DNA of 64,000 nt from NCBI GenBank assembly GCA_051117635.1, contig JBNPEH010000005.1, positions 42,389 to 106,388 on the forward strand, given 5' to 3'. The position numbers were made by a program, and so were the translations under genes. This stretch comes from Opitutales bacterium. Its GTDB lineage: Bacteria > Verrucomicrobiota > Verrucomicrobiia > Opitutales > JABSRG01. Positions 953-57,982 of the stretch are shown in pieces (positions within the stretch are counted from its first letter, which is position 1; each line of letters opens with the position of its first letter). The notes beneath the pieces were generated by a model. The model made no database searches and was not told where the DNA came from. It saw only the letters and a list, made by a program, of their open reading frames with translations.

Positions 953-2065
953 ATGGACAACAAGGCCCTCACCCTGAAGGAACTGCAGAGCAACGCCGGC
1001 CGCCTCAACAACCGCCTGGCAGTCGTCGGCCTGGACGGCTTTGTCGACAAGATCATCCACCCGGTGGACAAACGCCACGGTCCCGGCGATGCCTTCGAAC
1101 GAATCAAGACCATCACGGACTTTGCCGGACGCATCGGCCGGGCCGCCGGCAAGAGCGCCAATATCGAACTGGCACCGGTCCTGGAGAAGCTGGGGGGCAA
1201 CGGCCCTATCATGGCCAACGCGCTGCTCAGCCTGGGTTTGAAGACCCGCTACATCGGCGCCCTCGGCCAACAGGTCATCCATCCCATCTTCGAGGCCTTC
1301 GCCAGGGCCACCGACGCCATCTCGCTCACGGATCCCGGGGTTACGCACGCCTGCGAATTCAACGACGGGAAGATCCTGCTCGGGTCGCTCGCCCCGCTGG
1401 AGAAAGTCACCTACGACCGGATCATCGAAGTGATGGGCGAGGGGCCGTTCCTCGACCTGATGTCGCGGGGCGACCTGATCGCGCTGACCAACTGGACCAT
1501 GCTTCCCTACATGACCGAGCTGTGGAACACCCTGACCGATCAGGTCCTGCCCAACCTGAACCGCCTCGAAGGCCGTCAGTTCTTCTTCGACCTGGCCGAC
1601 CCCGAAAAACGGTCGACCAGCGACCTGCAGGGCGCCCTCCAGGCCATCAAGCGCTTCCAGAGCTTCGGCAATGTCACCCTCGGCCTAAATTTCAAGGAAG
1701 GCCAGCAAGTCGATGCGCTGCTCGGGAACGCCGAATCCGAACCTGAGCCGGACCAGCTCAAGGCCATGGCCACCCGGATCCGGAACGCACTCGGGATCAC
1801 CTGCGTGGTGGTCCACCCCACCCGCTCGGCCGCCTGCGCCACCAAGGAAGACGCCTATTGGGTCGAAGGACCGTTCACGGACAACCCGAAGATCACGACC
1901 GGGGCCGGCGACCACTTCAACGCCGGGTTCTGCACCGGCCGCCTCCTCGGGCTCAGCCCGCTGGCCGCCCTGACCGTCGCCGTGTCCACCTCCGGATCCT
2001 ACGTCCGCACCGGCCAGAGCCCCAACCTGTCCTCCATCCAGTCCTTCATCAGCGGCTGGAAGTGA
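953..2065 (+). CDS. PfkB-family (ribokinase-like) carbohydrate kinase
   Basis: ORF 893..2065. C-terminal PfkB signature TTGAGDHFNAGF. I prefer the ATG at 953 (MDNKALTL...) over the upstream start. Confidence 0.8.
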   Translation: MDNKALTLKELQSNAGRLNNRLAVVGLDGFVDKIIHPVDKRHGPGDAFERIKTITDFAGRIGRAAGKSANIELAPVLEKLGGNGPIMANALLSLGLKTRYIGALGQQVIHPIFEAFARATDAISLTDPGVTHACEFNDGKILLGSLAPLEKVTYDRIIEVMGEGPFLDLMSRGDLIALTNWTMLPYMTELWNTLTDQVLPNLNRLEGRQFFFDLADPEKRSTSDLQGALQAIKRFQSFGNVTLGLNFKEGQQVDALLGNAESEPEPDQLKAMATRIRNALGITCVVVHPTRSAACATKEDAYWVEGPFTDNPKITTGAGDHFNAGFCTGRLLGLSPLAALTVAVSTSGSYVRTGQSPNLSSIQSFISGWK

Positions 2066-2075
2066 GCGTCGGTCC

Positions 2076-2317
2076 TCAGTTGGTCAGTTGACAGATGTCA
2101 GTGGGCCGTGGGTCAGGGCGGAGCGCGCTGCTTCAGCGAGCGACGGTCACCCGAGAGCCGAGGGTTGGCCATCACTCATTGCATCGCTTGCTGAAGCGGC
2201 GCGGTACGCAGGTTCGGCCCAACCCTAAGAACCATTAACCGTGCCGACCGCTGACCAGGCTCCGCCAACCAACCGACGACTGACAACTGACCCACTGACC
2301 CACTGACAACTGACTCA
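2076..2317. repeat. About 240-bp structured intergenic element bounded by inverted arrays of TCAGT(T/G)G / CTGAC octamers
   Basis: Arm 1 (2076-2118) is tcagttggtcagttgacagatgtcagtgggccgtgggtcaggg. Arm 2 (2280-2317) is ctgacaa ctgaccca ctgaccca ctgacaa ctgactca. The rc of arm 2 aligns to arm 1 apart from a 7-nt indel. Inner inverted repeats: gctgcttcagcgagcga (2127-2143) with tcgcttgctgaagcggc (2184-2200). Confidence 0.6.
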
Positions 2318-2367
2318 CGCTTGCCGGTCTCCCTTGCCCGCGGCGGCCGGACCATCATACTGGAGTT

Positions 2368-3030
2368 ATGTCAGAAACCGAGCTCGCACACCCCGGGCGC
2401 CTGATCACTTTCGAGGGATCGGAAGGCAGCGGGAAAACCACTCAAATCGGCCGGCTGGCCACGCTGCTGGAGGACGCCGGTTACGAGGTTGTCGTCACCC
2501 GGGAACCGGGCGGCACCGAACTCGGTGAGCAGATCCGGCACCTGCTCAAGCACACGTTCGGAGGCGCCCCGATGGCCATCGAGACGGAGCTGCTGCTCTT
2601 CGCCGCGGCGCGGGCCCAGCTCGTCCGCGAGTTGATCATTCCCGCCCGCGAGGCCGGCAAGATCATTCTCTGCGACCGGTTCCTCGATTCGACCACCGTC
2701 TATCAGGGAATGGCCCGGAAAATTGCCCAGGACCCCATCCGGTTAATCAACGATTTCGCCGTCGGCTCAATGGAGCCCGACATGACCATCGTCCTCGACG
2801 TGCCGGCCGAGGTCGGCATGAACCGCATCAAGAAACGGGTGACTGACATTCCGGACCGGATGGAGCAGGAGAACATCGGTTTCTACAAGCGCGTCCGCGA
2901 GGGCTACCTCATGCTGGCCAAACAACTGCCCGGGCGTTTCCGCGTCATCGACGGCACCAGGGATGTGATGGAGATCGAGGCCGAGATCTGGGACGAGGTC
3001 AGCCAGCTGCTGCTCAGCGTCGAAGCCTGA
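2368..3030 (+). CDS. tmk: Thymidylate kinase
   Basis: ITFEGSEGSGKTTQ P-loop, TREPGGT and DRF motifs. Size is 220 aa. Conserved tmk-holB adjacency. Confidence 0.95.
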   Translation: MSETELAHPGRLITFEGSEGSGKTTQIGRLATLLEDAGYEVVVTREPGGTELGEQIRHLLKHTFGGAPMAIETELLLFAAARAQLVRELIIPAREAGKIILCDRFLDSTTVYQGMARKIAQDPIRLINDFAVGSMEPDMTIVLDVPAEVGMNRIKKRVTDIPDRMEQENIGFYKRVREGYLMLAKQLPGRFRVIDGTRDVMEIEAEIWDEVSQLLLSVEA

Positions 3031-3067
3031 GGCCGGGGCCCACCTGTTCCGCCGGCCATACGGTATC

Positions 3068-4048
3068 ATGCCTTTGGATACAGAAGCTCAACCCACCGAG
3101 CCGGCCCGCCGTGCCGTAGCCGTGCTGGAACGTGCGGTTTCCCGGGGCCGGCTGGCTCACGCCCTTCTCCTGCAAGGGGAAAACCTGAAGGCGCTGGAAA
3201 CCGTTGCGGCCCGGACCGCGCGCAACCTCCTCGCCCTGACCGCGGGCCGCGATCCCCTGCAGCATCCGGACTGTTTCACGCTGCGCCCGTCCGGCAAAGC
3301 CCGCTTCATCCGGGTGGCGGACAAGGACGGCCACCCCGGCCCCAACACCATGCGTGGCTTCATCCGGGAGATCCAGTTTTCGCCCAACCAGGCAGAGCGG
3401 AAGGTCGGGCTGGTCTTTGAGGCCGACCGCATGAATCCGGCGACTCAGAACGCCTTTCTCAAGACGCTGGAGGAACCGCCAGCCGACACGACTCTGCTGC
3501 TGATCACCACCCGCCCGTTCGATCTCCTGGACACCATCCGCAGCCGGTGCCTCAACGTGCGGCTGCCGGCGGACCTGCAGGCGATCGACGCCGAGGCCTG
3601 GCGGGGCTGGCAAGATGCCTACCGCCAGTGGGTGCACTTTGCCTGTCGGGGTCCGTCCAACCGGGAAGCGGTCGTCCGCGGCATCCTTGGTGCCTACGGC
3701 CTGATCGCCCGCTTCCAGGATTTTCTCAATGCCTTCACCGAGGAGGCCTGGCAGGCCCGGAAGGCGAACCTGCCGGAGAACCTCAGCACGGAGGAGACCG
3801 ACGCCATCGAAGCCGGTCTACGCCGCGGCCTGCGGATCCAACTGCTGAGCGAACTGGAAACGGCCACCCGTGACGCCGCCCTGGCCGATCCCGACGCCCC
3901 GGCGGATCCCTCGAAGATCCGCAAACTCGCCCGCGTCGTGGCCGAGTTGGAGCACGCCCGCGGCCTGCTCGACCTGAACATGCAGGAAGGCACCGCCCTG
4001 GAATGTTTTTTTCTCAAAGCCGTCCGCATCTGGGCAGGCCGGGAGTGA
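3068..4048 (+). CDS. holB: DNA polymerase III delta' subunit
   Basis: AHALLLQG..., NAFLKTLEEPP, TTRPFDLLDTIRSRC motifs. Lies downstream of tmk. Confidence 0.85.
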   Translation: MPLDTEAQPTEPARRAVAVLERAVSRGRLAHALLLQGENLKALETVAARTARNLLALTAGRDPLQHPDCFTLRPSGKARFIRVADKDGHPGPNTMRGFIREIQFSPNQAERKVGLVFEADRMNPATQNAFLKTLEEPPADTTLLLITTRPFDLLDTIRSRCLNVRLPADLQAIDAEAWRGWQDAYRQWVHFACRGPSNREAVVRGILGAYGLIARFQDFLNAFTEEAWQARKANLPENLSTEETDAIEAGLRRGLRIQLLSELETATRDAALADPDAPADPSKIRKLARVVAELEHARGLLDLNMQEGTALECFFLKAVRIWAGRE

Positions 4049-4083: not shown

Positions 4084-4160
4084 ACCCGGCTGTCTCACCA
4101 GAATCGAACAGGAGTGGTAAATAATTCTGGCCGAGGGACTTGCAGTGAGGCCGCGTACTG
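4084..4160 (+). repeat. Partial copy of the stop-codon-adjacent repeat family (left about 65 nt)
   Basis: acccggctgtctcaccagaatcgaacaggagtggtaaataattctgg...cttgcag aligns with 50243-50305. It fills most of the convergent holB/sulfatase spacer. Confidence 0.6.
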
Positions 4161-6372: not shown

Positions 6373-7361
6373 CCGTGACGCCCGCTCTTGCCCAAAAGCT
6401 ACCCTCCGCCTGGACGCCCCAACAACCGGAAGCGGGGTGGCATCGGCAGGCGCACCTGCAACCCGCCTTCCGGCACTGCCGGTCCGTCACACGGGAGCAT
6501 GCGCGCAGTTTCTATTTTTCGTCCTTCCCGCTACCCCGGTCGAAGAAACTGGCGGCTTTCGCGGTCTATGCCTTCTGCCGGTATATCGACGACATCATCG
6601 ACGAGGGGGAGGCCGGTAAACGGGAACGCCCCAGCCGTGAAATCCTCCGCGAGGAACTGGTCCGGATCGAGGCCGGGACCAGCACCCTGCCCTTCGCACC
6701 GGCGTTTGCGGAGGTAAACCGGCAATTCGGGATCGACCGTCGGTTCTACGAGGACCTGATCGAAGGCTGTTGCCGGGACCGGGAACCAGCCGACATCCAG
6801 ACCTATGAGGAACTGGAACTGTACTGCTACTATGTCGCCTCGGTCGTTGGTCTGATGATGAGCCATATCTTCGGGCTGTCCGACGTCAAAGGCGTCCAGC
6901 AGGCCGTTGAGATGGGGGTCGCCATGCAGTTGACCAACATCCTGCGCGATGTGCGGGAAGATTGGCACATGGGCCGGATCTACCTGCCCGCCGAAGAACG
7001 GGAACGGTTCGGTATTACGGACAAGCATATCGAGGATGGCATCGTGGATGATGCCTGGCGACGCTTTATGGCCTTTCAGGTCGAGCGCACGCGGCGGTTT
7101 TATGCGGCAGGCGCCCGAGGGCTCGCGCTGCTATCCCCGGACGGATCCCGCCAGACCGCCACCCTGATGGCCCGCGTCTATGCTGGGATCCTGGACGAGA
7201 TCGAGAAGCGGGAGTACGATGTCTTTTCCGGGCGGGTATTCGTCCCGACCCGGCGTAAACTCCGCATCGCGCTGAAGACCGGCTTCCGGGGGGTGAGGAA
7301 GCGACGGGCGTTGCCGGCATCGCACGGCCGTTCGGCTAAGACTCCCTATAATCGGCTCTAG
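6363..7361 (+). CDS. Phytoene/squalene synthase family protein
   Basis: FYFSSFPLP, YAFCRYIDDIIDE, YCYYVASVVG, QLTNILRDVREDWHMGRIYLP motifs. No in-frame ATG near the N-terminus, so the start is TTG 6363 or GTG 6375. Confidence 0.85.
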   Translation: MKIPVTPALAQKLPSAWTPQQPEAGWHRQAHLQPAFRHCRSVTREHARSFYFSSFPLPRSKKLAAFAVYAFCRYIDDIIDEGEAGKRERPSREILREELVRIEAGTSTLPFAPAFAEVNRQFGIDRRFYEDLIEGCCRDREPADIQTYEELELYCYYVASVVGLMMSHIFGLSDVKGVQQAVEMGVAMQLTNILRDVREDWHMGRIYLPAEERERFGITDKHIEDGIVDDAWRRFMAFQVERTRRFYAAGARGLALLSPDGSRQTATLMARVYAGILDEIEKREYDVFSGRVFVPTRRKLRIALKTGFRGVRKRRALPASHGRSAKTPYNRL

Positions 7362-7430
7362 CCCGAATTTCTCTCCAGAATCGGGAAAAAGGAAAGCTCA
7401 TCGCATCTGGGCTTCATGAGAAGTCCGGGC
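7361..7430. repeat. 70-bp miniature copy of the repeat family (both ends present, interior deleted)
   Basis: gcccgaatttctc (7361-7373) pairs with gagaagtccgggc (7418-7430). 12 of 13 positions pair, one of them a G-U wobble. It overlaps the TAG of the synthase gene and the last codons and stop of pyrD. Confidence 0.7.
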
Positions 7431-8490
7431 CGGATGCCGTCGGGGCTTTCCGCCGGGCCAATGCATGTGTAATTCCGGTGACCAGACCGGGCCCTTTGAA
7501 GATCAGACCGGTGTAGAGCTGCAAGAGCGTGGCCCCGGCTTCGATTTTTTCGATCGCGGCGTCCGGGCTGTCGATGCCCCCGACCCCGATGATGGGCAGC
7601 TCCCCGGCGGTGCGACGGGCAATGTGCGCGATCACCTCGGTGCTGCGCTCACGAAGGGGAGGTCCACTCAGGCCGCCGGCCTCATCCACCTCGGCGAAGG
7701 CGCCGGGCCTGGCAGTCGTTGTATTGGTGGCAATGATACCGCTGAGCTCGAGTTCGTGCAGCAGGTCCAGGATGGCATCAATCTCCTCGAAGCGGCAGTC
7801 CGGCGCGATCTTCAGCAGGAGGGGAACCGGGGGCACGCCCACCTCGTCGGACCGCTCCCGATCCGCGTCCACCACCGCCTGAAGGAGCGCCCGCAGCGCA
7901 TCGACCTGTTGGAGATCTCGCAGTCCCTGTGTGTTGGGGCTGGATACATTGATCGTGAAATAGTCGGCATAGGGCGCCAGCCGCTGGTAGCCGGCCCGGT
8001 AGTCGTCGGCCGCCCGGTTCAGGGGGGTCACCTTGGCCTTGCCGATGTTGATGCCGATGGGAACGGTCCGCTGCCCCGGGGGGGGCAACCGCTCCAGACG
8101 ACGGGCGATGGCCTCGGTTCCCCTGTTGTTGAACCCCATCCGGTTGATGACCGCCGCATCGTCGGGGTAGCGGAAAAGCCGCGGCCGCGGATTGCCCGGC
8201 TGCCCCCACGGAGTGACCGTGCCCACTTCGACGAAGCCGAAGCCCAGCCCGGCCCAGGCAGGAACAGCGACCGCGTCCTTGTCCATCCCGGCGGCGAGCC
8301 CGAGGCGATTGGGAAACCGCACGCCGAAACAGGTAACCGGATCCGCCTGACGGTTGCGTCGCTCCAGCCAGCGGCAGAGCGGGCTCAATCGGGCCAGCAC
8401 CGCCAGCCCGTCCATGGACAGCAAATGGGCTGTTTCCGGATCCAGGCGGAACAGGAGGGGGCGGAGGCAGGCGGTATACAGGCGGCCCAT
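7414..8490 (-). CDS. pyrD: Dihydroorotate dehydrogenase (quinone), class 2
   Basis: LLFRLDPETAH, GLAAGMDKD, GFVEVGTVTP, NRMGFNN, INIGK, NVSSPNTQGLR motifs. ATG at 8490. The ORF track starts at a TTG at 8529. Confidence 0.92.
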   Translation of the reverse strand: MGRLYTACLRPLLFRLDPETAHLLSMDGLAVLARLSPLCRWLERRNRQADPVTCFGVRFPNRLGLAAGMDKDAVAVPAWAGLGFGFVEVGTVTPWGQPGNPRPRLFRYPDDAAVINRMGFNNRGTEAIARRLERLPPPGQRTVPIGINIGKAKVTPLNRAADDYRAGYQRLAPYADYFTINVSSPNTQGLRDLQQVDALRALLQAVVDADRERSDEVGVPPVPLLLKIAPDCRFEEIDAILDLLHELELSGIIATNTTTARPGAFAEVDEAGGLSGPPLRERSTEVIAHIARRTAGELPIIGVGGIDSPDAAIEKIEAGATLLQLYTGLIFKGPGLVTGITHALARRKAPTASGPDFS

Positions 8491-8667: not shown

Positions 8668-9390
8668 ATGCCCAAAACCGCCCCCAAACTCAGCTGGTGC
8701 CGTGTGCGCCTCGGTGAAGACATGAACTGGTGGGTCGAGGAAATCAGCGACGAGGTCCACTGGGATGTGGACGGACTCAGCATCCTCGATCCGCGGCAGA
8801 TTCAGTATATTCTCGAATTGATCGAGCCCTTGACCGAGTACGGTTATCAGGAGTCCCTCTTTGAGGCGGCCTTCTATCCCTTCACGATCAAGACGGAGCT
8901 CAAGGACGGGAAGATCGAGTTGGCGCGGTCCAATGAATCCTTTCTCGAGAGCGATGAACCGATGTTCGCGCTACCAGACGTGATGGACGAGGAGAAGGGG
9001 CCTTACGCCGATTTCCTCAACCACATCACACGGCTGCGGGTGAAGCTGCTCAACGACCTCATCGACTTTAAGCAGAATCTGACCGTCGATGAACTGGAGG
9101 AGGAAATCCGGGAGAACGAGAATAACGAGTTCATGGAAGGCCGGGCCGTGCATTTCTTCACCGAGATCACCTCCATCCTCGAATACGTGCCGGAAGGTTA
9201 CGAGCTCGACAAGGAGGAGGTCGAAGATACCGACGACGACGAGGAGGAAGAAATCGACGAGGATTTCCCCGATGTCGAAGAGTCCGAGGAGAAGATCGAA
9301 GAGGACGAAACGATGAAGTGGGACGACGACGAGGACGAGGAGACCGAGGACGAGAACGAGGAGACCGAAGACGAGGAAAAAGAAAAGTAA
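8668..9390 (+). CDS. Hypothetical protein with an extremely acidic C-terminal tail
   Basis: 240-aa ORF with no family I recognise. About two thirds of the last 60 residues are D/E (DTDDDEEEEIDEDF...DDDEDEETEDENEETEDEEKEK). Alternative ATG at 8722. Confidence 0.6.
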   Translation: MPKTAPKLSWCRVRLGEDMNWWVEEISDEVHWDVDGLSILDPRQIQYILELIEPLTEYGYQESLFEAAFYPFTIKTELKDGKIELARSNESFLESDEPMFALPDVMDEEKGPYADFLNHITRLRVKLLNDLIDFKQNLTVDELEEEIRENENNEFMEGRAVHFFTEITSILEYVPEGYELDKEEVEDTDDDEEEEIDEDFPDVEESEEKIEEDETMKWDDDEDEETEDENEETEDEEKEK

Positions 9391-13147: not shown

Positions 13148-13173
13148 ATCCGTCCGGCCTTTCCCTTCAGCTC

Positions 13174-13198
13174 CCTCTTTCCGATTCCACCTTCAGGG
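13174..13198 (-). repeat. Degenerate solo copy of the repeat-family left end (reverse orientation)
   Basis: The rc is cctgaaggtggaatcggaaagaggg. Compare 33365-33394, cctgaacttctcaccggaatcgggaaagag. Confidence 0.35.
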
Positions 13199-15556: not shown

Positions 15557-15638
15557 CCCGGATTTCTCACCAGAACCAGAAAACCGAGCGGCAAATTATA
15601 AAAGCGCTGCGACGCAATTTCTAAAACGGCTCTCGTGG
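15556..15638 (+). repeat. Partial copy of the repeat family filling the convergent DUF2237/enolase-superfamily spacer
   Basis: acccggatttctcaccagaaccagaaaaccgagcggcaaattataaaag...caatttc aligns with 50243-50312. It starts on the last base of the TGA stop. Confidence 0.6.
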
Positions 15639-23845: not shown

Positions 23846-24220
23846 ATGTCCACGGTCCTCATCATGCTCGGCGGTGCCCTCGGCGCCGGTAGTCGTTACT
23901 GGCTCGACCGGTGGGTCAGCCATACGGCGGACACCGCCTTCCCCTGGGGCACCTTCGCCTGCAACGGCCTGGGATCCTTGGCTATCGGTATCGTATTCGC
24001 CCTCCTCGGAACCGGTCCCGAGCACGCCGCCTGGCGGCTTTTCCTGATGACCGGTCTGCTGGGCGGCTTCACCACCTTTTCCACCTTTTCGATGCAAACG
24101 CTGATCCTGGTGCGCAGCGGGCAACCGGGGCTGGCGGTCCTCAACGCCGGGGTCTCCCTCGGCGGCTGTCTGCTGGCCTGTACCCTGGGCCTTTGGCTGG
24201 CGGGCGGGCTACGCCTCTGA
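23846..24220 (+). CDS. crcB: Fluoride ion channel CrcB/FluC
   Basis: GGALGAGSRYW, FPWGTFACN, GLLGGFTTFSTF motifs. ATG at 23846 gives 124 aa. Confidence 0.9.
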   Translation: MSTVLIMLGGALGAGSRYWLDRWVSHTADTAFPWGTFACNGLGSLAIGIVFALLGTGPEHAAWRLFLMTGLLGGFTTFSTFSMQTLILVRSGQPGLAVLNAGVSLGGCLLACTLGLWLAGGLRL

Positions 24221-25642
24221 CTCGCCCAGAAAGTCCGGCAACCAGGCGGCCAGGGCTTCGGCGGCCGCCCGTTCGGTTTCCTCCAGGGCAGCGGATTGAT
24301 CCCGGGCGGCCTGTCGACTCAGCGCCGCGATCTGGCGCACGAGGGAGTCGGGCAGCTGTCGCGACGGATTATTCGCCCGGACCGGTGCCGCTTCGGTTTC
24401 TTCGGGACCACCGGACAGATTGCGTCGGGCGTGTGACCAATGGGCCAGCGCATCCAGAAGGATGAGGCCCCGGTCCAGCAGGATGAAAGGGAATTGCGGA
24501 TTGTGGTTGGGCCCGAGAGCGAGTTCACGACCGCCCAAGGGGATTTTCTGGACCTGCACGGAAGCCAGTCGCTGGCCCTGGGTCCAGACACCGGCGGCGC
24601 CGGCGACCGCACCCACGGCTGCCCAGAGACCGAGCGAAACGCCGCCGAAGATGGCGTCCCCGGCCGCGCCGGTCACCGCACCGCCGACCGCCCCCGCCCA
24701 GGTGAGTTGCCGCTTATCGAGACCGAGAAAAGACCAGGTGCGCCGGGAGAACAGGTCATCATTCAGCACCCGCTCCTCGGGGAGCTGCGGTTGAAAGACC
24801 CGGTGCCGGAACAACCGGCAAAGGGTCTCGCGGGTCCCCCGTTCAAACCGGCGCAGGTCGTCCTGATAACGCTTGTCCAATTGATCCCGCAGCTTCGCCT
24901 CGTGCCGGGGATCCTCCGGCAGGGGGCCGGTCACCCGGTGGGCGCAGGCCTGGCGGACCAGGGCGACCAGCTCGCCGGCGGCCAACCGCAGGCGTTCCGC
25001 CCGCTCCTCGCGCATCAGGGTGATAGCCGTGTCGAGATCCCTTGCCCAGTCCGGGTCGATCGCCTTCAGTGCCTCCAGCAGTCCGATGCGCTCAGGATAG
25101 GCGGCCTGGTGGGCGTTGAAGACCCGAAGCGCGTTGAATTGCTGCCGGAACGCGGTTTTCCAATCTTCGAGGTAACGCTCTTCGGGGGTCTTGGCGTTGA
25201 TGACGGCCAGGCGGGGAAGTCCGGTCCGGCGCAGGATTTCCATTTCAGTGCGATCCATAGCTCGGACCGGCCGCGAAGCATCCACCACGTAAAGGAGGGC
25301 CGTTCCGGCCGCGACCGGCTTGAGTAGTTCGACATCCAGCGCGTAGCGTTCATCCGAAGCCTTGGCCCGCCGGAAAGCCGCGATGCCTTCCGGCCCCTCC
25401 ACCCCATGGTCCTCCAACCAGGCGAGTACCCCCTCCGGGTGCTCGAAACCCGGTGTATCCACAAAACGGATAACCGCCTTCCCCCCGGCCTCCACCGTGT
25501 AGGGCAGGCAGGCCCGGGTCGTCCCGGGCGTGCGATCCACCCCGATCCGGTCGTCCTCCACCAGCGTGGACAAGACGGAGGATTTCCCCTCGTTCGGGTG
25601 ACCCAGCACCGCAAAGACGGGTAATGTGCCCGGCTCGCTCAT
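24209..25642 (-). CDS. Membrane-anchored P-loop GTPase (GTPase/DUF3482-like)
   Basis: G1 GHPNEGKSS, G3 DTPG. Glycine-zipper membrane segment GAVGGAVTGAAGDAIFGGVSLGLWAAVGAVAGAAGVW. ATGA overlap with the upstream gene. Confidence 0.8.
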   Translation of the reverse strand: MSEPGTLPVFAVLGHPNEGKSSVLSTLVEDDRIGVDRTPGTTRACLPYTVEAGGKAVIRFVDTPGFEHPEGVLAWLEDHGVEGPEGIAAFRRAKASDERYALDVELLKPVAAGTALLYVVDASRPVRAMDRTEMEILRRTGLPRLAVINAKTPEERYLEDWKTAFRQQFNALRVFNAHQAAYPERIGLLEALKAIDPDWARDLDTAITLMREERAERLRLAAGELVALVRQACAHRVTGPLPEDPRHEAKLRDQLDKRYQDDLRRFERGTRETLCRLFRHRVFQPQLPEERVLNDDLFSRRTWSFLGLDKRQLTWAGAVGGAVTGAAGDAIFGGVSLGLWAAVGAVAGAAGVWTQGQRLASVQVQKIPLGGRELALGPNHNPQFPFILLDRGLILLDALAHWSHARRNLSGGPEETEAAPVRANNPSRQLPDSLVRQIAALSRQAARDQSAALEETERAAAEALAAWLPDFLGESEA

Positions 25643-27198
25643 GCGGTCGAAGCGGTTGCCGCGGGTGCCCAGGGTTCCACGATAATGCGGGACAAACCGG
25701 CATCGGCGACCCGGTCGCGCCAGACAGCGAGATCGGCCGGATCGGGAGGGGTCAATCCCGGCAGCGCGGACCGACCGGGATCGGGGCGCCCCGTCAGGAT
25801 CAGGAGGCAGGGGCCGGATACCGATGCCTGCCAGCGACCCAGCGCTTCCAGGTGCTCGCGAACCGGGGGCTGCCAGGCTTCCATCAGGCGTACCACGGCA
25901 GGCCCCTCGGGCCCGGCGGAGGCAGCAGCCGCCTCTATTTCCAGACCGGCTACGTCCAGCGAAGCCGTGAGGGTACGATGAAGCGCCTCCGCATCCTGCT
26001 CGTCCAACCAGTCGGGATCCACCCGGACGGTGACCGGTCCATCAAAGTAATTGCCCAACCCGGACCGCCGCTCGCGCTGATCGGCCGGTCCGCTGGGGAT
26101 CCTGGAGGGTCCGGTGGCCGCAGCCTCTCCACGGAAGAGGTTGACGGGGGTGGCCAGGGCGGCGTCAAGCCGCAGGCAATCGGTATTGTCGAGAGTCGGG
26201 CACCGGGCCAGCCGGCGAGCCCGCCAGCCGGTGACGACGGCTAGCACCAGCCGGGGCAGGAGACCATAGACCAGGACCGACATCAGGATAAAGGGCCACC
26301 AGGCGGAGAGAGCCTGCGTATCCAAAGCATCAATACCCTGCTGCACCACGAAGCGACTGCCCTGCACGGTGCTCAGGTCGGGAGCCGCCGCTGGCAACCA
26401 GTCTCTCCAGGGCAGGCTGACTGCCTGGACAAGCCGGTGCATGGTGTCGGCCTCCCGGATCAGCGTCGATTCCCAGCCGAAGGCGCGGTCGGTCACGGCC
26501 AGCGCAATGACGAGCGCCAGCAAGACCCCCGCATTAAAGGCCACCCCGGCGGCATGCAACCGGGCGAGCACCGCTCGCGCGAGCGTCCGCCGGTGGAGCG
26601 ACCAACGACGGCGGAACCAGGACCAGAAGGCGGCGAAGTCATCATTCTCGACGGATCCGCCCTCCTGCCGGACCCGACGCAGGAGCAACCAGCGCCAGAT
26701 CCCGCCCAGGGTTTCGAAAGCGAAGCTGCCGGTCCGGCCGGGGGCGTCCTGTCGACCCCGTCGCCGCAGGGCCTGGACCAGAAACAAGGCCAGCAACCAC
26801 ACCAGTTGAAGCCCCACCAGACCCGCCCAGACAAGCGTGATGTTGGCGGGGGAGTCGCCTTCGTAGGCGATCAGGCCCAGGGCAAGCAAGGCGCCCGAAA
26901 CGGCGCTGAAACCCAGCGCCAGCAAACCGACGCGGTCGAGCAAATCCTCTGCCGGGCGGCCGGGCCAGACCAGGTCACGGTGTTCGGCCTGCTGCGCGGA
27001 CAACCAGCCGGACAGGCGACCCCGGCGGCTGGTTTCGCCGGTCGACCAGCCGGAGGGCACGCGCTCGATGGCCCCGCGCTCGATCCGGAAAAGGGCATAC
27101 TCCAGATCAATCAACCGGGCGAGGGACCAGGGGACAGAAGACGGTTCGGGCGGCACGGAGCCTAGTGTTGGGCGGAGCCGGAGCCCCTGCAAGCGCAA
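25639..27198 (-). CDS. Polytopic membrane protein (DUF2868-like), partner of the GTPase
   Basis: At least four hydrophobic helices and a soluble C-terminal region. The only start at the 5' end is a TTG, so the start is uncertain. Confidence 0.7.
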   Translation of the reverse strand: MRLQGLRLRPTLGSVPPEPSSVPWSLARLIDLEYALFRIERGAIERVPSGWSTGETSRRGRLSGWLSAQQAEHRDLVWPGRPAEDLLDRVGLLALGFSAVSGALLALGLIAYEGDSPANITLVWAGLVGLQLVWLLALFLVQALRRRGRQDAPGRTGSFAFETLGGIWRWLLLRRVRQEGGSVENDDFAAFWSWFRRRWSLHRRTLARAVLARLHAAGVAFNAGVLLALVIALAVTDRAFGWESTLIREADTMHRLVQAVSLPWRDWLPAAAPDLSTVQGSRFVVQQGIDALDTQALSAWWPFILMSVLVYGLLPRLVLAVVTGWRARRLARCPTLDNTDCLRLDAALATPVNLFRGEAAATGPSRIPSGPADQRERRSGLGNYFDGPVTVRVDPDWLDEQDAEALHRTLTASLDVAGLEIEAAAASAGPEGPAVVRLMEAWQPPVREHLEALGRWQASVSGPCLLILTGRPDPGRSALPGLTPPDPADLAVWRDRVADAGLSRIIVEPWAPAATASTA

Positions 27199-33330: not shown

Positions 33331-33364
33331 TAAACGATGATCGACCGGTATCCGAAGTGCTTAA

Positions 33365-33394
33365 CCTGAACTTCTCACCGGAATCGGGAAAGAG
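33365..33394 (+). repeat. Solo left-end copy of the repeat family in a divergent promoter region
   Basis: cctgaacttctcaccggaatcgggaaagag, flanked by cttaac/gttaag. Confidence 0.5.
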
Positions 33395-33470
33395 CGAGTT
33401 AAGAAGAAAGCGGCGGCAAATCCCCCCTTGCAGTTCGCCCCGCCCTGGCCTTCCCTTTGATTTCTTCCGT

Positions 33471-41190: not shown

Positions 41191-41417
41191 CGTCGAGGTA
41201 TCTCACGGAGAGGAGCGCAGCGACTCGGAGTTGAGATCACCGTCTGGATGGCCGTTCCTTTTTGACTCACGCCATTTCGACAAGCTCAAGGCCCTGAGCC
41301 TGCCGCAGGGCAAAGCCCCAAAGACCCCAAGGTTTTCATCTTCGATTCACTTCGTTCATTACCCGCTGGCGGGATCTTTGACTTTGGGTCTTCGGGTCTT
41401 GAGCGTAGCGGGCGTGA

Positions 41418-41454
41418 GATTCATGAGAAGTCCGGGTTCGGTGGCTCGAACCCG
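41418..41454 (-). repeat. Solo right-end copy of the repeat family plus an 8-bp hairpin directly after the GT2 stop (candidate terminator)
   Basis: gattcatgagaagtccggg (41418-41436) matches 50467-50485 and 7412-7430. Hairpin cgggttcg gtggct cgaacccg (41433-41454) abuts the stop codon at 41456-41458. Confidence 0.45.
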
Positions 41455-41455
41455 A

Positions 41456-42157
41456 TTACCGCCGGAACAGGTTGTATTTGAGGATGGCGTAGATGGCGCG
41501 AAAGCCGTCCTTCCACCCGATCTTTTTACCCTCGGCGTAGGTGCGCCCGTAGTAGCTGATCCCGACCTCGAAGATGGCCACATCCTGTCTGGCCACCTTG
41601 GCGGTGATCTCAGGCTCGAAACCGAAGCGGTTCTCCTTGATTTCAATGCCCTGGATGACCTCGCGGCGGAAGACTTTGTAGCAGGTTTCCATGTCGGTTA
41701 GGTTGATGTTGGTCAGCATGTTCGACAGCGTGGTGAGAAACCGGTTGCCGACCATGTGCCAGAAATAGACCACGCGGTGCGGCCCCCCACCCTGGAAGCG
41801 GGACCCGAAGACGACGTCCGCCTTGCCCCCGAGAATGGGCCCGAGCAGGCGACCATAGTCCCCCGGATCGTACTCCAGGTCGGCGTCCTGAATCAGAATG
41901 ATATCGCCGGTGGCCTCGGCGATACCGGTCCGCAGGGCGGCTCCTTTCCCCTGATTTTCCGTGTGCCGGCAAATACGGGTCAGCTGTTCCTCCGGCGCCG
42001 CTTGGAGAGCGGCCAGCGTTCCGTCGGTCGAGGCGTCGTCCACGGCGATCACCTCACAGGCCAGCTCCAGGTTCTCGACCGAGCGATGAACGGCCGCGAG
42101 AATCCGTGCGATGGTCCGCTCCTCGTTGTAGCAGGGTATGATGACCGAGAGCTTCAT
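41456..42157 (-). CDS. Family 2 glycosyltransferase
   Basis: [16 protein letters not shown]...VDDASTDGT...[10 protein letters not shown]. Confidence 0.9.
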
Positions 42158-48935: not shown

Positions 48936-50243
48936 ATGATTCAGCCCAAGCAGGTCGCAGCCTGGTCCGCCCCGCGCGAACTGGAAACGGATGTCGTGGT
49001 GGTCGGTGGCGGTTCGGCCGGATCCGCTGCGGCGCTGGCCGCGGCCCGAAACGGGGCGTCTGTCGTCCTGATCGAGGAGGGAAACTGCCTGGGCGGAGTC
49101 AGCACCGCCGGCGGAGTCAACGAGTGGTTCGCCAACCTCGAAGGCATCGGTGACATCATGACCGAGGTGGTCGGCCAGATGGAGGCCGCCGGGGCCAAGT
49201 ACGGACGCTTTTTCAACGGCGAGATGCTCAAGTTCGTCTGGCAGGAGCTGCTCAGCCAGGCCGGCGTCACCCTGCTTTTCCATACCAGCCTGACCGGCAC
49301 GGTCCTGGACGGCCGGCGGATCACCGCGGTGGAGGCGCTGTCCCTCAGCCGGCCTGTCCGCATCGCAGGCCGCTGGTTCATCGACGCGAGCGGCGAGGGC
49401 GACCTGGCCGCCGCCGCCGGGGCCGCCTTTCATTCCGGAGATCCCGAAAACGGGAAGCAACTTCACATGAGCCTCACCGGGCTCATGGTCAAAAGCCCGC
49501 GCAAGGTGGAGCCCTGGTTGCCCGACCACCTCGAGCCGATCGCCGGGCCGGACGACGTGCCCGGGCTGAAAACGGCCTACCGCACACCCGACGGCCGCGT
49601 CTACGTCAACATGACCAAAATCATGAGCCGGGACTCGACCGACCCGATCGATGTGTCGGCAGCCGAGGCGGAGGCGCGCCGCCAGCTCCTGCGGTCGGTC
49701 CATTACCTGCAACGCACCCGGTTTCCGAACCACATCCTCGTATCCAGCGGAGCCCGGATCGGGATCCGGGAAGGCCGTCGCATCGTCGGCGAAACCACGC
49801 TGACCCGGGCCTACATCCTGCGCGAGGACGGGCAGGACGGGCGGTGCCCCGACCCCGCCACCGTGGCCACCTGTCAGGTCGATTTCCACAGCCTGAGCCG
49901 GGCGGGCCATGCCGGCTGGCGTGAGGCGGTGGCGCCCTATCAGGTGCCCTTCGGTGCCCTGGTGGTCGCGGGCATCGACAACCTCCTGACCGCCGGCAAA
50001 TGCATCAGCTCCGACCAGATCGCACACAGCTCGGTGCGCATGACCCCGACCTGCACCAGCATGGGCCAGGCGGCGGGCATCGCGGCAGGGCTCGTCGCCG
50101 CCGGTGGCGCGGAAACCTTCCGCACGCTACCCTACCGGGACCTCCAAGCGGCCCTGACCCGGCAGGGCTTCGACCTCGAGCCCACACACCACCAGAGCTT
50201 TGCCCCCGAGGTCACCAGTGACTCGGAAGCGGACCGGCTTTAG
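48936..50243 (+). CDS. FAD-dependent oxidoreductase
   Basis: DVVVVGGGSAGSAAALAAARNG dinucleotide-binding motif. 435 aa. Confidence 0.8.
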   Translation: MIQPKQVAAWSAPRELETDVVVVGGGSAGSAAALAAARNGASVVLIEEGNCLGGVSTAGGVNEWFANLEGIGDIMTEVVGQMEAAGAKYGRFFNGEMLKFVWQELLSQAGVTLLFHTSLTGTVLDGRRITAVEALSLSRPVRIAGRWFIDASGEGDLAAAAGAAFHSGDPENGKQLHMSLTGLMVKSPRKVEPWLPDHLEPIAGPDDVPGLKTAYRTPDGRVYVNMTKIMSRDSTDPIDVSAAEAEARRQLLRSVHYLQRTRFPNHILVSSGARIGIREGRRIVGETTLTRAYILREDGQDGRCPDPATVATCQVDFHSLSRAGHAGWREAVAPYQVPFGALVVAGIDNLLTAGKCISSDQIAHSSVRMTPTCTSMGQAAGIAAGLVAAGGAETFRTLPYRDLQAALTRQGFDLEPTHHQSFAPEVTSDSEADRL

Positions 50244-50485
50244 CCCGAACTTCTCACCAGAATCGGGAAACAGGGCGGTCAATAATACTGAACGAACGAT
50301 TTGCAGCATTTCTTCGAAATGCACGCACGTGGTGGAACCCTGTTTCCCGATTCTTTTCGCCCACATGCGCGATCTGCGGCGTTGTCGGGCTGGAAACCGC
50401 CTGGTTACGCACCTCAGTGCGCGCCCAGCCGGTTTCGCCCTCCGCCTGGCAGCTCATCCCATCTGGGCTTCATGAGAAGTCCGAG
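50243..50485. repeat. Full-length (243-bp) inverted-repeat-bounded structured element, the founder copy of the dispersed repeat family
   Basis: The ends gcccgaacttctc and gagaagtccgag(t) are inverted. Internal 17-bp perfect inverted repeat at 50259-50275 and 50338-50354. Hairpins at 50306-50322 and elsewhere. It occupies the whole convergent spacer. Confidence 0.7.
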
Positions 50486-52585
50486 TTAGGGGATGATCAG
50501 TTCCTGGCCAACCTGCAGCGACCGCGGGTCATCGAGCCGGTCGCTGTTGGCCGCGAAAATGTCGGCCCAGCGGCCGGACGTACCGTAGAACTGCCGGGAA
50601 ATGCTGCTGAGGGTGTCGCCGGCCTGAACGGTGTAGGTGCGGAACTCCGGTCTCGGCGGGAGAGCCGCCGCATCAGCTTCCGCATCGGCGGGACGGTCGG
50701 TGGCAACCTCCGGTTCTCCCACGGGGCTTTCGGCAGCGACCACAGTGTCTGGCCGGCGGGGGTCCGCGCGGCGGGGTGAAGCGGCTGCTGGCTCCGAATC
50801 CGTCGTGGCCGGCGGGGGGCCGGTCGACGCGACCCCGGCATCGGCAGGCTCGACCGCCGGGGAATCGGCTGGACGCGGATCGTAGAAGGCGAGCCGGTTT
50901 TCCAGACGGTCGACGCGATCCTGAAGGTCGGCATTTTCAGACTGGAGAGCCGCCACCCGCTCGGTTGCCGCACCCCGCGCATCGACCCGTTCGGCACGCA
51001 GGGCATCCAGCTCCGACTCGAGCGAATTCAGCGCCTCACGGGCGGCCGTCAGATCGCTTTTCAGCCGACGGTTTTCCGCGCGGGCCGAGGCGAGCGAAGC
51101 ATCGAGGGCGGCCACCCGGTCTCCGCTGGCGGCCTGGTTTCGGGTAAGTGTATCGATGCGGGCCTGGAGGGACTCGATGGTTTCCCGGGCTTCGGCGGAT
51201 GCCCTTCGCCGGGCGGCCTCGGCGGCATCCCGCTCATCCCGCGCGGCGGTCAACTGTTGCTCGAGGTCGGCTACCCGGTCCCGGGCCTCCAGCACGGCCG
51301 ATTCTTCGGCCTCCAGGCGCCCGCGCAAGGCGGCCAACTGATCGCTCAGATCTTCGCGTTCCGCACGCACCGCTTCCAGCGTCTGTTGACGCTCCCGCAA
51401 GGCAGCCAACTCATGACGCTGGCGCTCGACCTCGGCCTCCAGGCGCTCGCGGTCGGCCTGACTGGAGGCCAGCGCCCGGGCCTCCGCTTCCAGCCGCTGC
51501 TCCAGAGCACCCAATCGTTCGGACAAGGTGCGGTTTTCGGCTGCCAGCGTTTGCTCCGCTTCGGCGGCCGCCTTTCGAGCCCGGGACAGCAAACCTTTCT
51601 GTTCTTCGAGCTCGGAACGGGCCGAGGCCAGCGCCGTCCGGGCGGATTCCAGGGCGGCGGATCGTTCCGCCAGGGTCTCCTCCAACGAGGTGGACCAGGC
51701 CTCGGCGTCCTCCAGATCGGAGCGAAGAGCCTCCCGCTCCGTCTGCACGCTGGACAGTCGCTCAAGGACGGCTTCCCGGTCAGCTTCCACTGCCTCCAGG
51801 GTCGCAGCCAATCGATCGCGTTTGGCCCGCAAGGCCGAAGTGTTGTCACCATCCAAAGCGGCGGCATCTAATTGAGTCCGCAGCCGGTCGATGGTCTCGG
51901 CGTAGGCATGGGCCTGCTCCTGCAGCCGGCCCCGTGCGGCAAGCGCGTCCTCGAGCCGCGCATTCAGGTCAGCCAGCTGTTCCCGGGCCTGCCGCAATTC
52001 GACCGACGGATCGTCGGCGGACTTCGTTTCCAGCTGCTCACGCAATTCAGCGATTTCGGCGTTTTTCCGCTGGAGCATATTTTCCGCCATGTTGGCCCGG
52101 CGCCGGGCTTCTTCGAGCGCGACGGCCTGCTCGATGCGTTCGCGCTCGGCCGTGGCGCGGGCGGCCTCGGCTTCGGCTTCCCCGGCCTCCGACCGGCTGC
52201 GCGTAATCCCGGCAGGGGTCGGCGCCACCTCGGTCGAAGCCTCGCCCAGCATGGCTCGCCGTTGCCGGAGCAAGGTTTCCCCCCGGGCCACCTCCTCCTC
52301 CGACATTCGGTCCAGGACATCGGCAAGTGCGCGGCCGGTGGCGCCGTTGGACCGGGCTATTTTCAACCAGGCATAAGCTTCGGGCAGGTTGAATGGGCCT
52401 TGTTCCGGGTCGCCATAGATGATCCCCAGGTTGTATTGGGCAATCACGTTGCCGGACTCGGCCTTGGCCTGCAGCGAGGCCAGCGCGCTGTCCGTCACCT
52501 GACCGGACAAACCGCCCGCCAGCGACGACAGAACAACCGCAGCGAGGCACCCGAAGCACCGAGAAGACAGAACCTGCTTTACCAT
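50486..52585 (-). CDS. Exported Sel1-repeat / long coiled-coil / C-terminal LysM protein
   Basis: Signal-like MVKQVLSSRCFGCLAAVVLSSLAGG. SLR motif AESGNVIAQYNLGIIYG...AYAWLKIA. About 450 aa of A/E/R/L heptad-like sequence and a P/A-rich linker. LysM YTVQAGDTLSSISRQFYG...LQVGQELIIP. Confidence 0.8.
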   Translation of the reverse strand: MVKQVLSSRCFGCLAAVVLSSLAGGLSGQVTDSALASLQAKAESGNVIAQYNLGIIYGDPEQGPFNLPEAYAWLKIARSNGATGRALADVLDRMSEEEVARGETLLRQRRAMLGEASTEVAPTPAGITRSRSEAGEAEAEAARATAERERIEQAVALEEARRRANMAENMLQRKNAEIAELREQLETKSADDPSVELRQAREQLADLNARLEDALAARGRLQEQAHAYAETIDRLRTQLDAAALDGDNTSALRAKRDRLAATLEAVEADREAVLERLSSVQTEREALRSDLEDAEAWSTSLEETLAERSAALESARTALASARSELEEQKGLLSRARKAAAEAEQTLAAENRTLSERLGALEQRLEAEARALASSQADRERLEAEVERQRHELAALRERQQTLEAVRAEREDLSDQLAALRGRLEAEESAVLEARDRVADLEQQLTAARDERDAAEAARRRASAEARETIESLQARIDTLTRNQAASGDRVAALDASLASARAENRRLKSDLTAAREALNSLESELDALRAERVDARGAATERVAALQSENADLQDRVDRLENRLAFYDPRPADSPAVEPADAGVASTGPPPATTDSEPAAASPRRADPRRPDTVVAAESPVGEPEVATDRPADAEADAAALPPRPEFRTYTVQAGDTLSSISRQFYGTSGRWADIFAANSDRLDDPRSLQVGQELIIP

Positions 52586-53313: not shown

Positions 53314-53331
53314 TAGCCCGAACTGCTCACC
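53314..53331 (+). repeat. Solo left-end fragment of the repeat family abutting the ade start codon
   Basis: tagcccgaactgctcacc is followed directly by ATG 53332. Compare tagcccgaacttctcacc at 50241. Confidence 0.45.
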
Positions 53332-55149
53332 ATGCCGAACATCACCCGCCTGTCCGTTACGCCGCTTCATGAAGTCACCCGGCGCCTGGCCGATGTCGCC
53401 TCCGGGCGTGCCGCGCCCGACCAGGTCCTGACCGGGGCTCGCATCCTTTCGGTATACTCCGATCGCCTGATCGAGGACCGGGAAATCTGGATCAGCCGGG
53501 GGCGGATCGCGGCCGTCAAACCTGCCGGCAGTCACCAGGGCCTCTCCCCGGTTCCGGAAAACGTCACCGATGTCGGCGGCGGCATCCTGGCACCGGGCCT
53601 GGTCGACCCCCACATCCATATCGAATCGTCGATGATGACGGCCTGCGCTTACGCGGAGGCGGCCCTGCTCAACGGGACGACCACCCTCTTCTGCGACAGC
53701 CATGAAATCGGCAACGTCTGCGACCGCGACGGCATCGAGTGGATGCTCGAGGATGCCCGGCAGGCCCCGCTCAATATTTTCCTCACCCTGCCCAGCACCA
53801 TCCCGGCCACCACGCCCGATTATGAAACAGCCGGCGGCGACCTCACCCCGGAAAAGGTCGGCGCGATCTTCGACGCCTGGCCCGAGGCGGTCGCGCTCGG
53901 GGAAAAGATGGATTTTGTCCAGGTCTGCCTGGGCGACCCCCGCAGCCACGGCATCATCGCCGAGGCCCTCAAACGGGGTCGGCCGGTATCCGGCCACATC
54001 TACGGCCGGGAATTCGTCGCCGCCTATGCCGCCAGCGGGGTGACCGACACGCACGAGGCCATCGACCGCGACATCGCCAACGATTTCATCGAATCGGGCA
54101 TCTGGGTCTTCCTGCGTGGCGGCCCCCCCACGACGCCCTGGCACAGCCTGCCCGAAGCCATCAAGGCGGTCACCGAGCTGGGGGCCAGCCCCAAACGCGT
54201 CTGCGTCTGCACCGATGACCGCGACGCCGACGACCTGTTCCTATTCGGCCAGGACTGGGTGGTGCGGGAAGCCGTCAAGGCCGGCATGGATCCGAAAACC
54301 GCCTGGGCCATGGGAAGCCTGCACCCGGCTACACGCTATCATCTGGACGGCGAGTTCGGTGCACTCGGCCACAGCCGGCGCGCCGACATCGTACTGCTCA
54401 ACGACGACCTCGAGCCCCAGTCCACCTGGTACGGGGGTGAACTGATGGTTAAGGACCGGAAGGTCACGCCGCTTCTCGACGAGCAACTGACCACCCACCG
54501 GTACCGGTACCCGGAGGCCGCCTACCGGACCGTGCAGGTCGGCAAGGACCTGAAGCTGACCCCCGATCCGCCCCAGGGACCGTGCACGTTGAACGTCATC
54601 CGGACCGAGCTGCCCGGCATCATCACGCTGCACCGGAAGGTCGAGCTGACAGAAACACCGGCTTCCTGGGACACGGTGTTCGCGGATCATGACCTCTGCT
54701 TTATCACCGTGGTCGAGCGCTACGGCAAAAACGGCGCAGTCGCCCACGGGCTGTTCCAGAATTTCGGCCTGAAGTCCGGGGCGGTTGCCTCCTCCGTCGG
54801 GCACGACGCTCACAACATCGTCATGGCCGGGACGAATGAAACCGACATGCAGCTTGCGCTGCAGACAATAGCCGATACCAACGGCGGCGTGGTTGTCGTC
54901 GACCGGGGCGAGATCCTGGCGATGGTCCCGTTGCCGGTGGCGGGGCTGCTGAGCGACAAGCGCGCCACCGAGGTGGCCAGGGAAACCACCGTGCTGAAAC
55001 AGGTCTGGAAGGCCGCCGGCCTCACCCTCCCCTACATGGGTTTCAACCTCATCCCGCTTTCGGTCATCCCGGAAATCCGCATCACCGACAAAGGCCTGGT
55101 CACCGTGCCGCAGATGGAAATTGTGCCCCTGGTCGAGACAGACGACTGA
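53332..55149 (+). CDS. ade: Adenine deaminase
   Basis: [29 protein letters not shown], and a layout typical of AdeC-type amidohydrolases. 605 aa. Confidence 0.88.
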
Positions 55150-57744: not shown

Positions 57745-57786
57745 GCGCGGCAATCACACTTCTTTCGGATTACCCGAAACCCTTCA

Positions 57787-57827
57787 GCGCCCCGTCGGCA
57801 TGTACCGGCGGGGCGTTTTTATTTTTT
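57787..57827 (+). terminator. Rho-independent terminator of the TonB-dependent receptor gene
   Basis: gcgccccgtcgg catgta ccggcggggcg followed by tttttatttttt. This is the only canonical stem plus U-tract I saw in the window. Confidence 0.8.
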
Positions 57828-57847: not shown

Positions 57848-57982
57848 AGGGGCGTTGCTTGCGACGCCCGTCTGCCGTAGGGGCGTTGCTTGCGACGCCC
57901 GTCGGTGGCCGGAAGACAGTCGGTATTGCTTCGCCAGGCCCGTTCTGATCGGGCGTCGCAAGCAACGCCCCTACGGCAGACG
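57848..57982. repeat. REP-like palindromic repeat cluster: two direct copies and one inverted copy
   Basis: aggggcgttgcttgcgacgcccgtc at 57848-57872 and 57879-57903. The 32-bp segment 57869-57900 is exactly reverse-complementary to 57951-57982. Each unit is itself a hairpin (gggcgt...acgccc). Confidence 0.85.

Follow-up and report, generated by a model that had tools for sequence, protein, structure and literature searches.

The window analysed here is a chromosomal stretch of 64,000 nt (64% G+C) from an uncultivated verrucomicrobium of the class Opitutae (contig JBNPEH010000005.1, positions 42,389 to 106,388), which carries the housekeeping genes for ThrRS, CysRS, BipA, Tmk, HolB, HemB and PyrD. 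Two convergent genes in this window, one for a FAD-dependent oxidoreductase and one for a coiled-coil protein whose LysM domain runs up to its last residue, are separated by a 242-bp element at 50244-50485, the nature of which is the subject of this work. An initial annotation made from the sequence alone had described this spacer as a single, heavily structured element bounded by inverted repeats, and had left it between a miniature inverted-repeat transposable element (MITE) and a terminator or small-RNA cassette. Its coordinates, the two adjoining stop codons, the internal repeat and the hairpins are confirmed (Table 1).

A repeat finder placed the terminal inverted repeat at 50241-56 / 50473-88 (13 of 16 positions), which bears out the imperfect inverted-repeat ends described initially, and returned a perfect 17-bp inverted repeat at 50259-75 / 50338-54 as well as a 20-nt hairpin at 80% identity (50393-412 / 50417-436). 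Two smaller hairpins lie at 50306-22 and 50408-21, and the left part of the element reads CTCACCAGAATCGGGAAA. When 253 nt were folded as single-stranded RNA, the plus strand gave -111 kcal/mol (z -6.4) and the minus strand -133 kcal/mol (z -9.2), and none of 200 shuffles was as good in either case, in agreement with the heavy structure that had been described; the strands differ in energy because the minus-strand fold contains 8 G-U pairs and the plus-strand fold 3. No open reading frame (ORF) with homology lies inside the 242 bp, as had also been noted, and the element is well below the size of an autonomous one. Its interior is built from palindromes nested in one another, a usual arrangement in MITEs, and is not common to other families. 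The spacer at 50244-50485 is one strongly folding unit, bounded by inverted repeats, whose ends recur in the window.

Table 1. Coordinates of the spacer element, its parts, the flanking genes and further copies in the 64,000-nt window
Feature	Position	Strand	Remarks
FAD-dependent oxidoreductase gene (PF12831)	48936-50243	+	Ends at TAG, 50241-43
Target-site duplication TTAG, left copy	50240-50243	+	Contains the TAG that ends the FAD-oxidoreductase gene
Probable MITE, long form, complete, 242 bp	50244-50485		13-bp terminal inverted repeats and direct TTAG duplication; occupies the convergent spacer
Terminal inverted repeat, left, CCCGAACTTCTCA	50244-50256	+	
Arm A, internal	50259-50354		Perfect 17-bp inverted repeat around the 7-bp hairpin at 50306-22, then TTTT
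Arm B, internal	50361-50465		Long imperfect hairpin, including 50393-50412 / 50417-50436
Terminal inverted repeat, right	50473-50485	-	Reverse complement CTCGGACTTCTCA; 12/13 positions as in the consensus TGAGAARTYCGGG
Target-site duplication TTAG, right copy	50486-50489	+	TTA, read in reverse complement, gives the TAA that ends the LysM gene
Coiled-coil protein gene, LysM domain up to the last residue	50486-52624	-	Stop TAA is the reverse complement of 50486-88
Left-end-only copy	4085-4135	+	56 nt alignable; 37 nt past the HolB stop
68-bp short form with almost directly joined ends	7362-7429		Internal-deletion derivative; left part 36 nt
Left-end-only copy, 44 nt	15557-15600	+	Abuts the TGA stop of a DUF2237 gene
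Left-end copy, 34 bp	33365-33398	+	TTAA at 33361-64 and 33399-402; weak right end (7/13)
Right-end-only copy, 17 nt	41420-41436	-	20 nt past the stop of a GT2 glycosyltransferase gene
Left-end fragment, 20 nt at 53313-32	53317-53332	+	TTAG in front; adenine deaminase start codon directly downstream

A direct TTAG duplication flanks the full copy. Removal in silico of 50244-50485 together with one TTAG yields cggcTTTAGggg, in which both stop codons are kept in frame: the plus-strand gene then ends in CTT TAG and the minus-strand gene in CCC TAA, and the predicted empty site between the FAD-oxidoreductase and LysM genes reads GACCGGCTTTAGGGGATGATC. Since both stops survive the removal of the element, its target would have been the TTAG in which the stop codons of the two convergent genes overlap, with the stop of each gene returned by the duplication. 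Because this duplication restored to each gene its own stop, the insertion would have been harmless. A TA-centred target of 4 bp could in this way let a transposon settle exactly on overlapping stops while damaging neither gene.

Further copies were sought in the window by BLAST, pattern, local-alignment and nhmmer searches, the results of which agree and are all far above shuffled controls. Seven to eight copies or remnants were found: the left-end 27-mer occurs 3 times where 0.00 occurrences are expected, and five left-end copies have nhmmer E-values of 1e-9 to 3e-15. Most of the sites listed in the initial annotation were recovered (4085, 7362, 15557, 33365, 53313-32, 7395-7427 and 41420-36), while at 13174, in reverse complement, only about 15 nt (GGAATCGGAAAGAG) match the sub-terminal left end, and weakly so. 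This match lies at 13170-13186 on the minus strand, upstream of thrS, and may be a remnant or due to chance. The left copy at 7361 and the right copy at 7406-7430, which had been counted apart, are both present as the joined ends of a single short form, the copy at 7353-7430. On the left this form is preceded by CTAG, whose TAG is the stop codon of a squalene/phytoene synthase gene; on the right the flank has decayed to CCGG and the duplicate is lost. The long and short copies are identical at 33 of 36 positions in the left end and at 32 of 33 in the right part (7395-7427), and they appear to be recently related. The 242-bp element has about 175 bp of interior in addition to what the short form contains, and because the first 30-40 nt of this interior are shared by the copies at 4085 and 15557, we take the short form to be an internal deletion and the long form to be the older layout. 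The interior was otherwise found neither elsewhere in the window nor in any fetched locus.

The left-end-only copies fold no better than shuffles (z -1.3 to +0.8) and are most simply viewed as decayed or truncated insertions. One-ended transposition is known for IS1380-family elements ('TMos', PMC3281130); it was considered as their source and set aside, as no convincing alternative right ends with matching duplications were located, save the weak one at 33365-33398. This 34-bp mini-copy (33361-33402 with its flanks) sits inside a CTTAAC/GTTAAG inverted repeat, in the spacer that separates a STAS-domain gene from a divergently oriented Zn-protease/RimK operon. At the short form, the ORF of PyrD (dihydroorotate dehydrogenase) enters the right end by 13 nt (7414-7433) and stops there at a TGA; since this stop lies inside the terminal repeat, the last PyrD residues (…GPDFS) would be encoded by the transposon. 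The solo right end is adjoined by a hairpin, GGGTTCG-gtggct-CGAACCC, at 41436-41457, and a 76-nt stretch around it (41385-41460) has a folding z of -3.1. Within a ketoacyl-synthase coding region, a look-alike at 45434-56 was dismissed as probably due to chance.

The identity of the ends emerged from a scan of viral contigs for TARCCCGRATTTCTCA, which led to a locus (L169; IMGVR_UViG_3300043654_000084) on a contig classed as viral, with an IS1380-family element at 1734-3213 on the minus strand of the locus. There, CTAG followed by CCCGGATTTCTCACCAGGAAT stands 94 nt upstream of a complete transposase ORF of 453 aa, which reaches 413.9 bits with the NCBIfam model for IS1380 family transposases (NF033539; cut-off 180) and 516 bits with the Pfam model PF13701. 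The fetched stretch contains the left end and the whole ORF, and the right end lies beyond it. The left end of the window element, CCCGAACTTCTCACCAGA, has the same letter as the L169 end, CCCGGATTTCTCACCAGG, at 15 of 18 positions, and the likeness extends beyond the terminal repeat (CTCACCAG). A tblastn search of the L169 protein against plasmids then gave annotated IS1380-family transposases, from which the boundaries of the elements were read. The 1,655-bp element of Pseudomonas putida pKF715A begins with CTAG and CCCGCATTTCTCACAG and closes with CTGTGAGAAATGCGGG and CTAG, and its terminal repeat agrees with the window left end at 13 of 16 positions. In Bradyrhizobium sp. CB82, CTAG precedes CCCGCATTTTTCACA on the left and follows TGTGAGAAATGCGGG on the right; in Rhizobium leguminosarum the corresponding ends, CCCGAATCTCTCA and TGAGAAATGCGGG, are each flanked by TTAG. 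The prototype, IS1380A of Acetobacter pasteurianus, starts with CGCGGAAATCTCACAG after TCGA, and its right end was not located in the locus read (L183). IS5 and IS630, which had been considered as parents for their YTAR or TA targets (Y, pyrimidine; R, purine), were dropped once the ends had been found on IS1380 elements.

Ends of this type are widespread. A metagenome scan for the end pair CCCGRAYTTCTC-N(20-50)-GAGAARTYCGGG returned at least 120 loci, on contigs of 37-71% G+C from many samples, with interiors that differ. Among the matches listed, to which the counts in this and the following two sentences refer, YTAR (CTAG, TTAG, CTAA or TTAA) stands directly to the left of 64 of 104 distinct elements and directly to the right of 56 of 104, where about 1.6% of positions would be expected by chance for any given set of four tetranucleotides. 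In the 19 elements with a non-palindromic left flank and a YTAR on the right, the right flank is identical to the left in 9 and its reverse complement in none, a pattern characteristic of a 4-bp target-site duplication and not of an inverted tag. Element ends abut the stop of an ORF with 100 or more codons in 36 of 187 cases (19%), compared with 7% for YTAR sites overall in these loci, and 4 of 82 elements lie between two such stops. The preference for stop codons thus looks like a wider tendency of these elements, and the rarity of TA-centred tetranucleotides outside stops and spacers in GC-rich DNA would explain it. The claim that the window element founds a repeat family of its own, and the statement that no described family is recognisable in it, do not survive: with its IS1380-family termini, it belongs to a large group of MITEs that have such ends and are spread over many metagenomes.

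The metagenome loci (L028-L147) hold elements of 44-74 bp, or hairpin elements of about 176 bp, with IS1380-type ends and YTAR flanks; the structured forms of about 176 bp include L049:8999-9174, L055:9079-9254 and L116:6733-6908. In sample Ga0256841 such elements occur on at least 10 contigs. When an autonomous element was sought in the at least 120 loci by pairing weak ends 0.9-2.7 kb apart, the ORFs between them, read by eye, looked like ordinary host proteins and not like transposases. More specific sequence from the window element gave little: the inner left motif had 24 single, unrelated hits in 185,579 species genomes against an estimated 17 or so for chance, and a 24-nt left motif had no hits in the metagenomes. 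The BipA protein has its best named hits in Opitutales, Puniceicoccaceae and other Verrucomicrobiota, with identities of 74% at most, which makes the organism a member of the class Opitutae that lacks a near sequenced relative. In the three nearest relatives, the surroundings of the BipA gene contain no copies of the element.

On account of its terminal inverted repeats, its 4-bp duplication, its lack of coding capacity, its several copies and its deletion derivative, we propose that 50244-50485 is a non-autonomous DNA transposon, a MITE, with IS1380-family terminal inverted repeats, and we assign this reading a probability of about 0.85. What is observed here is the structure, the copies, the duplication and the agreement of the ends with those of IS1380 elements. 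Going by the behaviour of the family, an IS1380-family DDE transposase encoded elsewhere would bind the 13-16-bp ends (CCCGRAYTTCTCA), excise the element and integrate it at a YTAR tetranucleotide, which would become duplicated; the shared ends suggest that such mobilisation takes place in trans. Several points weigh against this proposal. The 64-kb window encodes no transposase of any kind, and a tblastn search of it with an IS1380 transposase found none of that family. Both ends and an intact duplication are present in only one of the approximately seven window copies; most of the others consist of the left end only, which is an unusually high share for a MITE family, and this left end forms a small bulged hairpin of the kind found in repetitive extragenic palindromic (REP) units. 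We infer mobility, the nearest relative (closest BipA homologue 74% identical) being distant for an empty-site comparison. No description of IS1380-derived MITEs was found in literature mentioning both IS1380 and MITE, so the link to IS1380 rests on sequence and not on experiment, and literature searches with the terminal-repeat sequence returned only unrelated animal, viral and medical studies. The element is an ordinary sort of genomic parasite, if a well-preserved one; its assignment to the family may be novel at the level of annotation, but not as biology.

The resemblance of the left end to a REP unit raises the question whether the element was moved as single-stranded DNA by a REP-associated tyrosine transposase (RAYT), the left unit being a tagged imperfect palindrome (YTAG + CCCGAAcTTCT-cacc-AGAAtCGGG) and the whole a tail-to-tail dimer, or REPIN. 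The left unit can indeed form a 9-bp bulged hairpin, singletons are common, units abut stop codons, and a classical GTAG-type REP cluster is present in the window at 57848-57982. GTAG REPs are abundant in Opitutus terrae, where their termini often supply TAG stops (PMC3733652). In the window element and its copies, however, the tag is YTAR (TTAG, CTAG, TTAA), without a conserved G in first position, and the flanks are direct duplications and never reverse complements; the homology among copies extends well past the hairpin, no Y1 transposase is encoded in the 64-kb window, and ends of identical type bound DDE transposase genes of the IS1380 family. The direct duplication and the IS1380 ends largely refute a REP or REPIN origin, which we regard as highly improbable. 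That the spacer is merely a palindrome-rich stretch with accidental matches elsewhere could be argued from the base composition of the window, since GC-rich intergenic DNA generally folds well, but this is already refuted by the copy statistics of the 27-mer and of the five nhmmer matches and by a fold better than 200 of 200 shuffles; its probability is negligible.

A functional RNA element, such as a bidirectional terminator, a stabiliser of 3' untranslated regions or a small-RNA gene, could also be kept by selection and be repeated because several genes need it. Such an element would account for the very stable fold on both strands, for the TTTT after arm A and for the position of copies at gene 3' ends in sense orientation, and the excess of G-U pairs in the minus-strand fold might hint at the transcribed strand. 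The asymmetry of 8 to 3 is not significant, however, and a strand cannot be derived from it. Searching the whole window against Rfam 15 at gathering thresholds gave no match, and at the locus itself matches with E up to 10 were noise only (best E = 0.27, 18.6 bits against a cut-off of 50); a search of the window for tRNA and tmRNA genes was negative too. A terminator scan of 49800-50900 found no site, arm A being followed by a run of just four T, although the organism uses canonical terminators elsewhere (57786-57826), and a sigma-70 promoter scan of the locus was likewise negative. An AT-rich box, CAATAAT, was tried as a -10 element and lacks a usable -35 at proper spacing, and a peptide read through the stop codons was discarded because third codon positions are not where the copies differ. 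Moreover, the interior is unique to the long copy, single-end copies fold no better than shuffles, and related elements in other genomes retain only the ends and flanks. While the MITE interpretation from the initial annotation holds, its terminator or small-RNA cassette fails as the primary identity of the element, and we judge it improbable.

If the element is a MITE, an effect on its neighbours could still follow: with RNA hairpins in both 3' untranslated regions and the TTTT after arm A, it could block or stabilise the transcripts of the adjoining genes. A broader proposal, speculative and in our view rather unlikely, is that MITEs of the IS1380/piggyBac type form a large, so far uncatalogued group in many phyla that, owing to its YTAR target, lands preferentially on stop codons in GC-rich genomes, the duplication regenerating the stop of one neighbouring gene or of both, and that copies such as 50244-50485 have been co-opted as structured buffers or terminators. 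Independently of this, an odd structured spacer and a local repeat family of an uncultivated verrucomicrobium can be explained without invoking a new RNA or regulatory system. The arrangement YTAR + CCCGRAYTTCTCA ... TGAGAARTYCGGG + YTAR offers a signature by which such elements could be masked or annotated in metagenome bins. Should they be as common as the metagenome scan (at least 120 loci) suggests, they would constitute an under-annotated class and a bacterial parallel to the piggyBac MITEs.

Three other features of the window lie apart from the element and its copies. Downstream of a TonB-dependent receptor gene, just past a canonical terminator at 57786-57826 (a GC hairpin followed by TTTTTATTTTTT), the REP cluster at 57848-57982 comprises three GC-rich palindromes tagged with GTAG (GTAGGGGCGTTGCTTGCGACGCCC), two of which, separated by 48 nt, pair as a perfect 33-bp inverted repeat; it looks like a classical REP/REPIN cluster of the Opitutus terrae kind. 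The ORF at 8668-9390 has no Pfam match and contains degenerate acidic (Asp/Glu-rich) repeats at 9085-9374. On the minus strand, at 24209-27198, adjacent genes for a DUF3482 GTPase and a DUF2868 protein stand beside a CrcB fluoride channel gene.

The known systems closest to the window element include the IS1380 family itself (IS1380A, IS1247, ISEcp1, ISPme1; NF033539, PF13701), with which it shares the terminal-repeat consensus CCCGNATTTCTCA and the 4-bp YTAR duplication, CTAG or TTAG in the annotated Pseudomonas, Bradyrhizobium and Rhizobium elements. It differs in its length of 242 bp without a transposase gene, where autonomous members have about 1.65 kb, and in an interior unrelated to the sub-terminal DNA of the insertion sequences examined. 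The end of the prototype IS1380A is more diverged, with TCGA before it in the one copy read. For IS1247, inverted repeats of 16/13 bp and a 5-bp duplication have been described (PMC3281130).

Other bacterial MITEs, such as Correia/NEMIS, Nezha and further IS630-type elements with TA duplication and the IS5-type elements with YTAR, share its small size, lack of coding capacity, terminal inverted repeats, strong folding and intergenic position. They are often found next to or across stop codons and, like the window element, occur as solo ends and deletion variants. The ends of the IS5 family start with G, and the duplication made by IS630 is TA only; the ends of the window element, by contrast, match IS1380, and its 4-bp duplication and CCC start fit the IS1380/piggyBac type. 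The RAYT-mobilised REPs, REPINs and bacterial interspersed mosaic elements, including the GTAG repeats of Opitutus terrae (PMC3733652), resemble it in their short hairpin units, inverted pairs with variable spacers, many singletons and termini that supply TAG; it is set apart from them by a direct duplication, a YTAR flank in place of a GTAG tag, and ends that bound DDE transposase genes.

The eukaryotic piggyBac MITEs offer a further comparison. In piggyBac, TTAA is duplicated and the ends start with CCC; the window element likewise combines a TA-centred 4-bp duplication with CCC-starting ends. Its host is bacterial, however, its target is relaxed to YTAR and its terminal sequences are different. 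The two transposase superfamilies are related, and IS1380 is acknowledged as the counterpart of piggyBac in prokaryotes (PMC5718144; PMC10813416).

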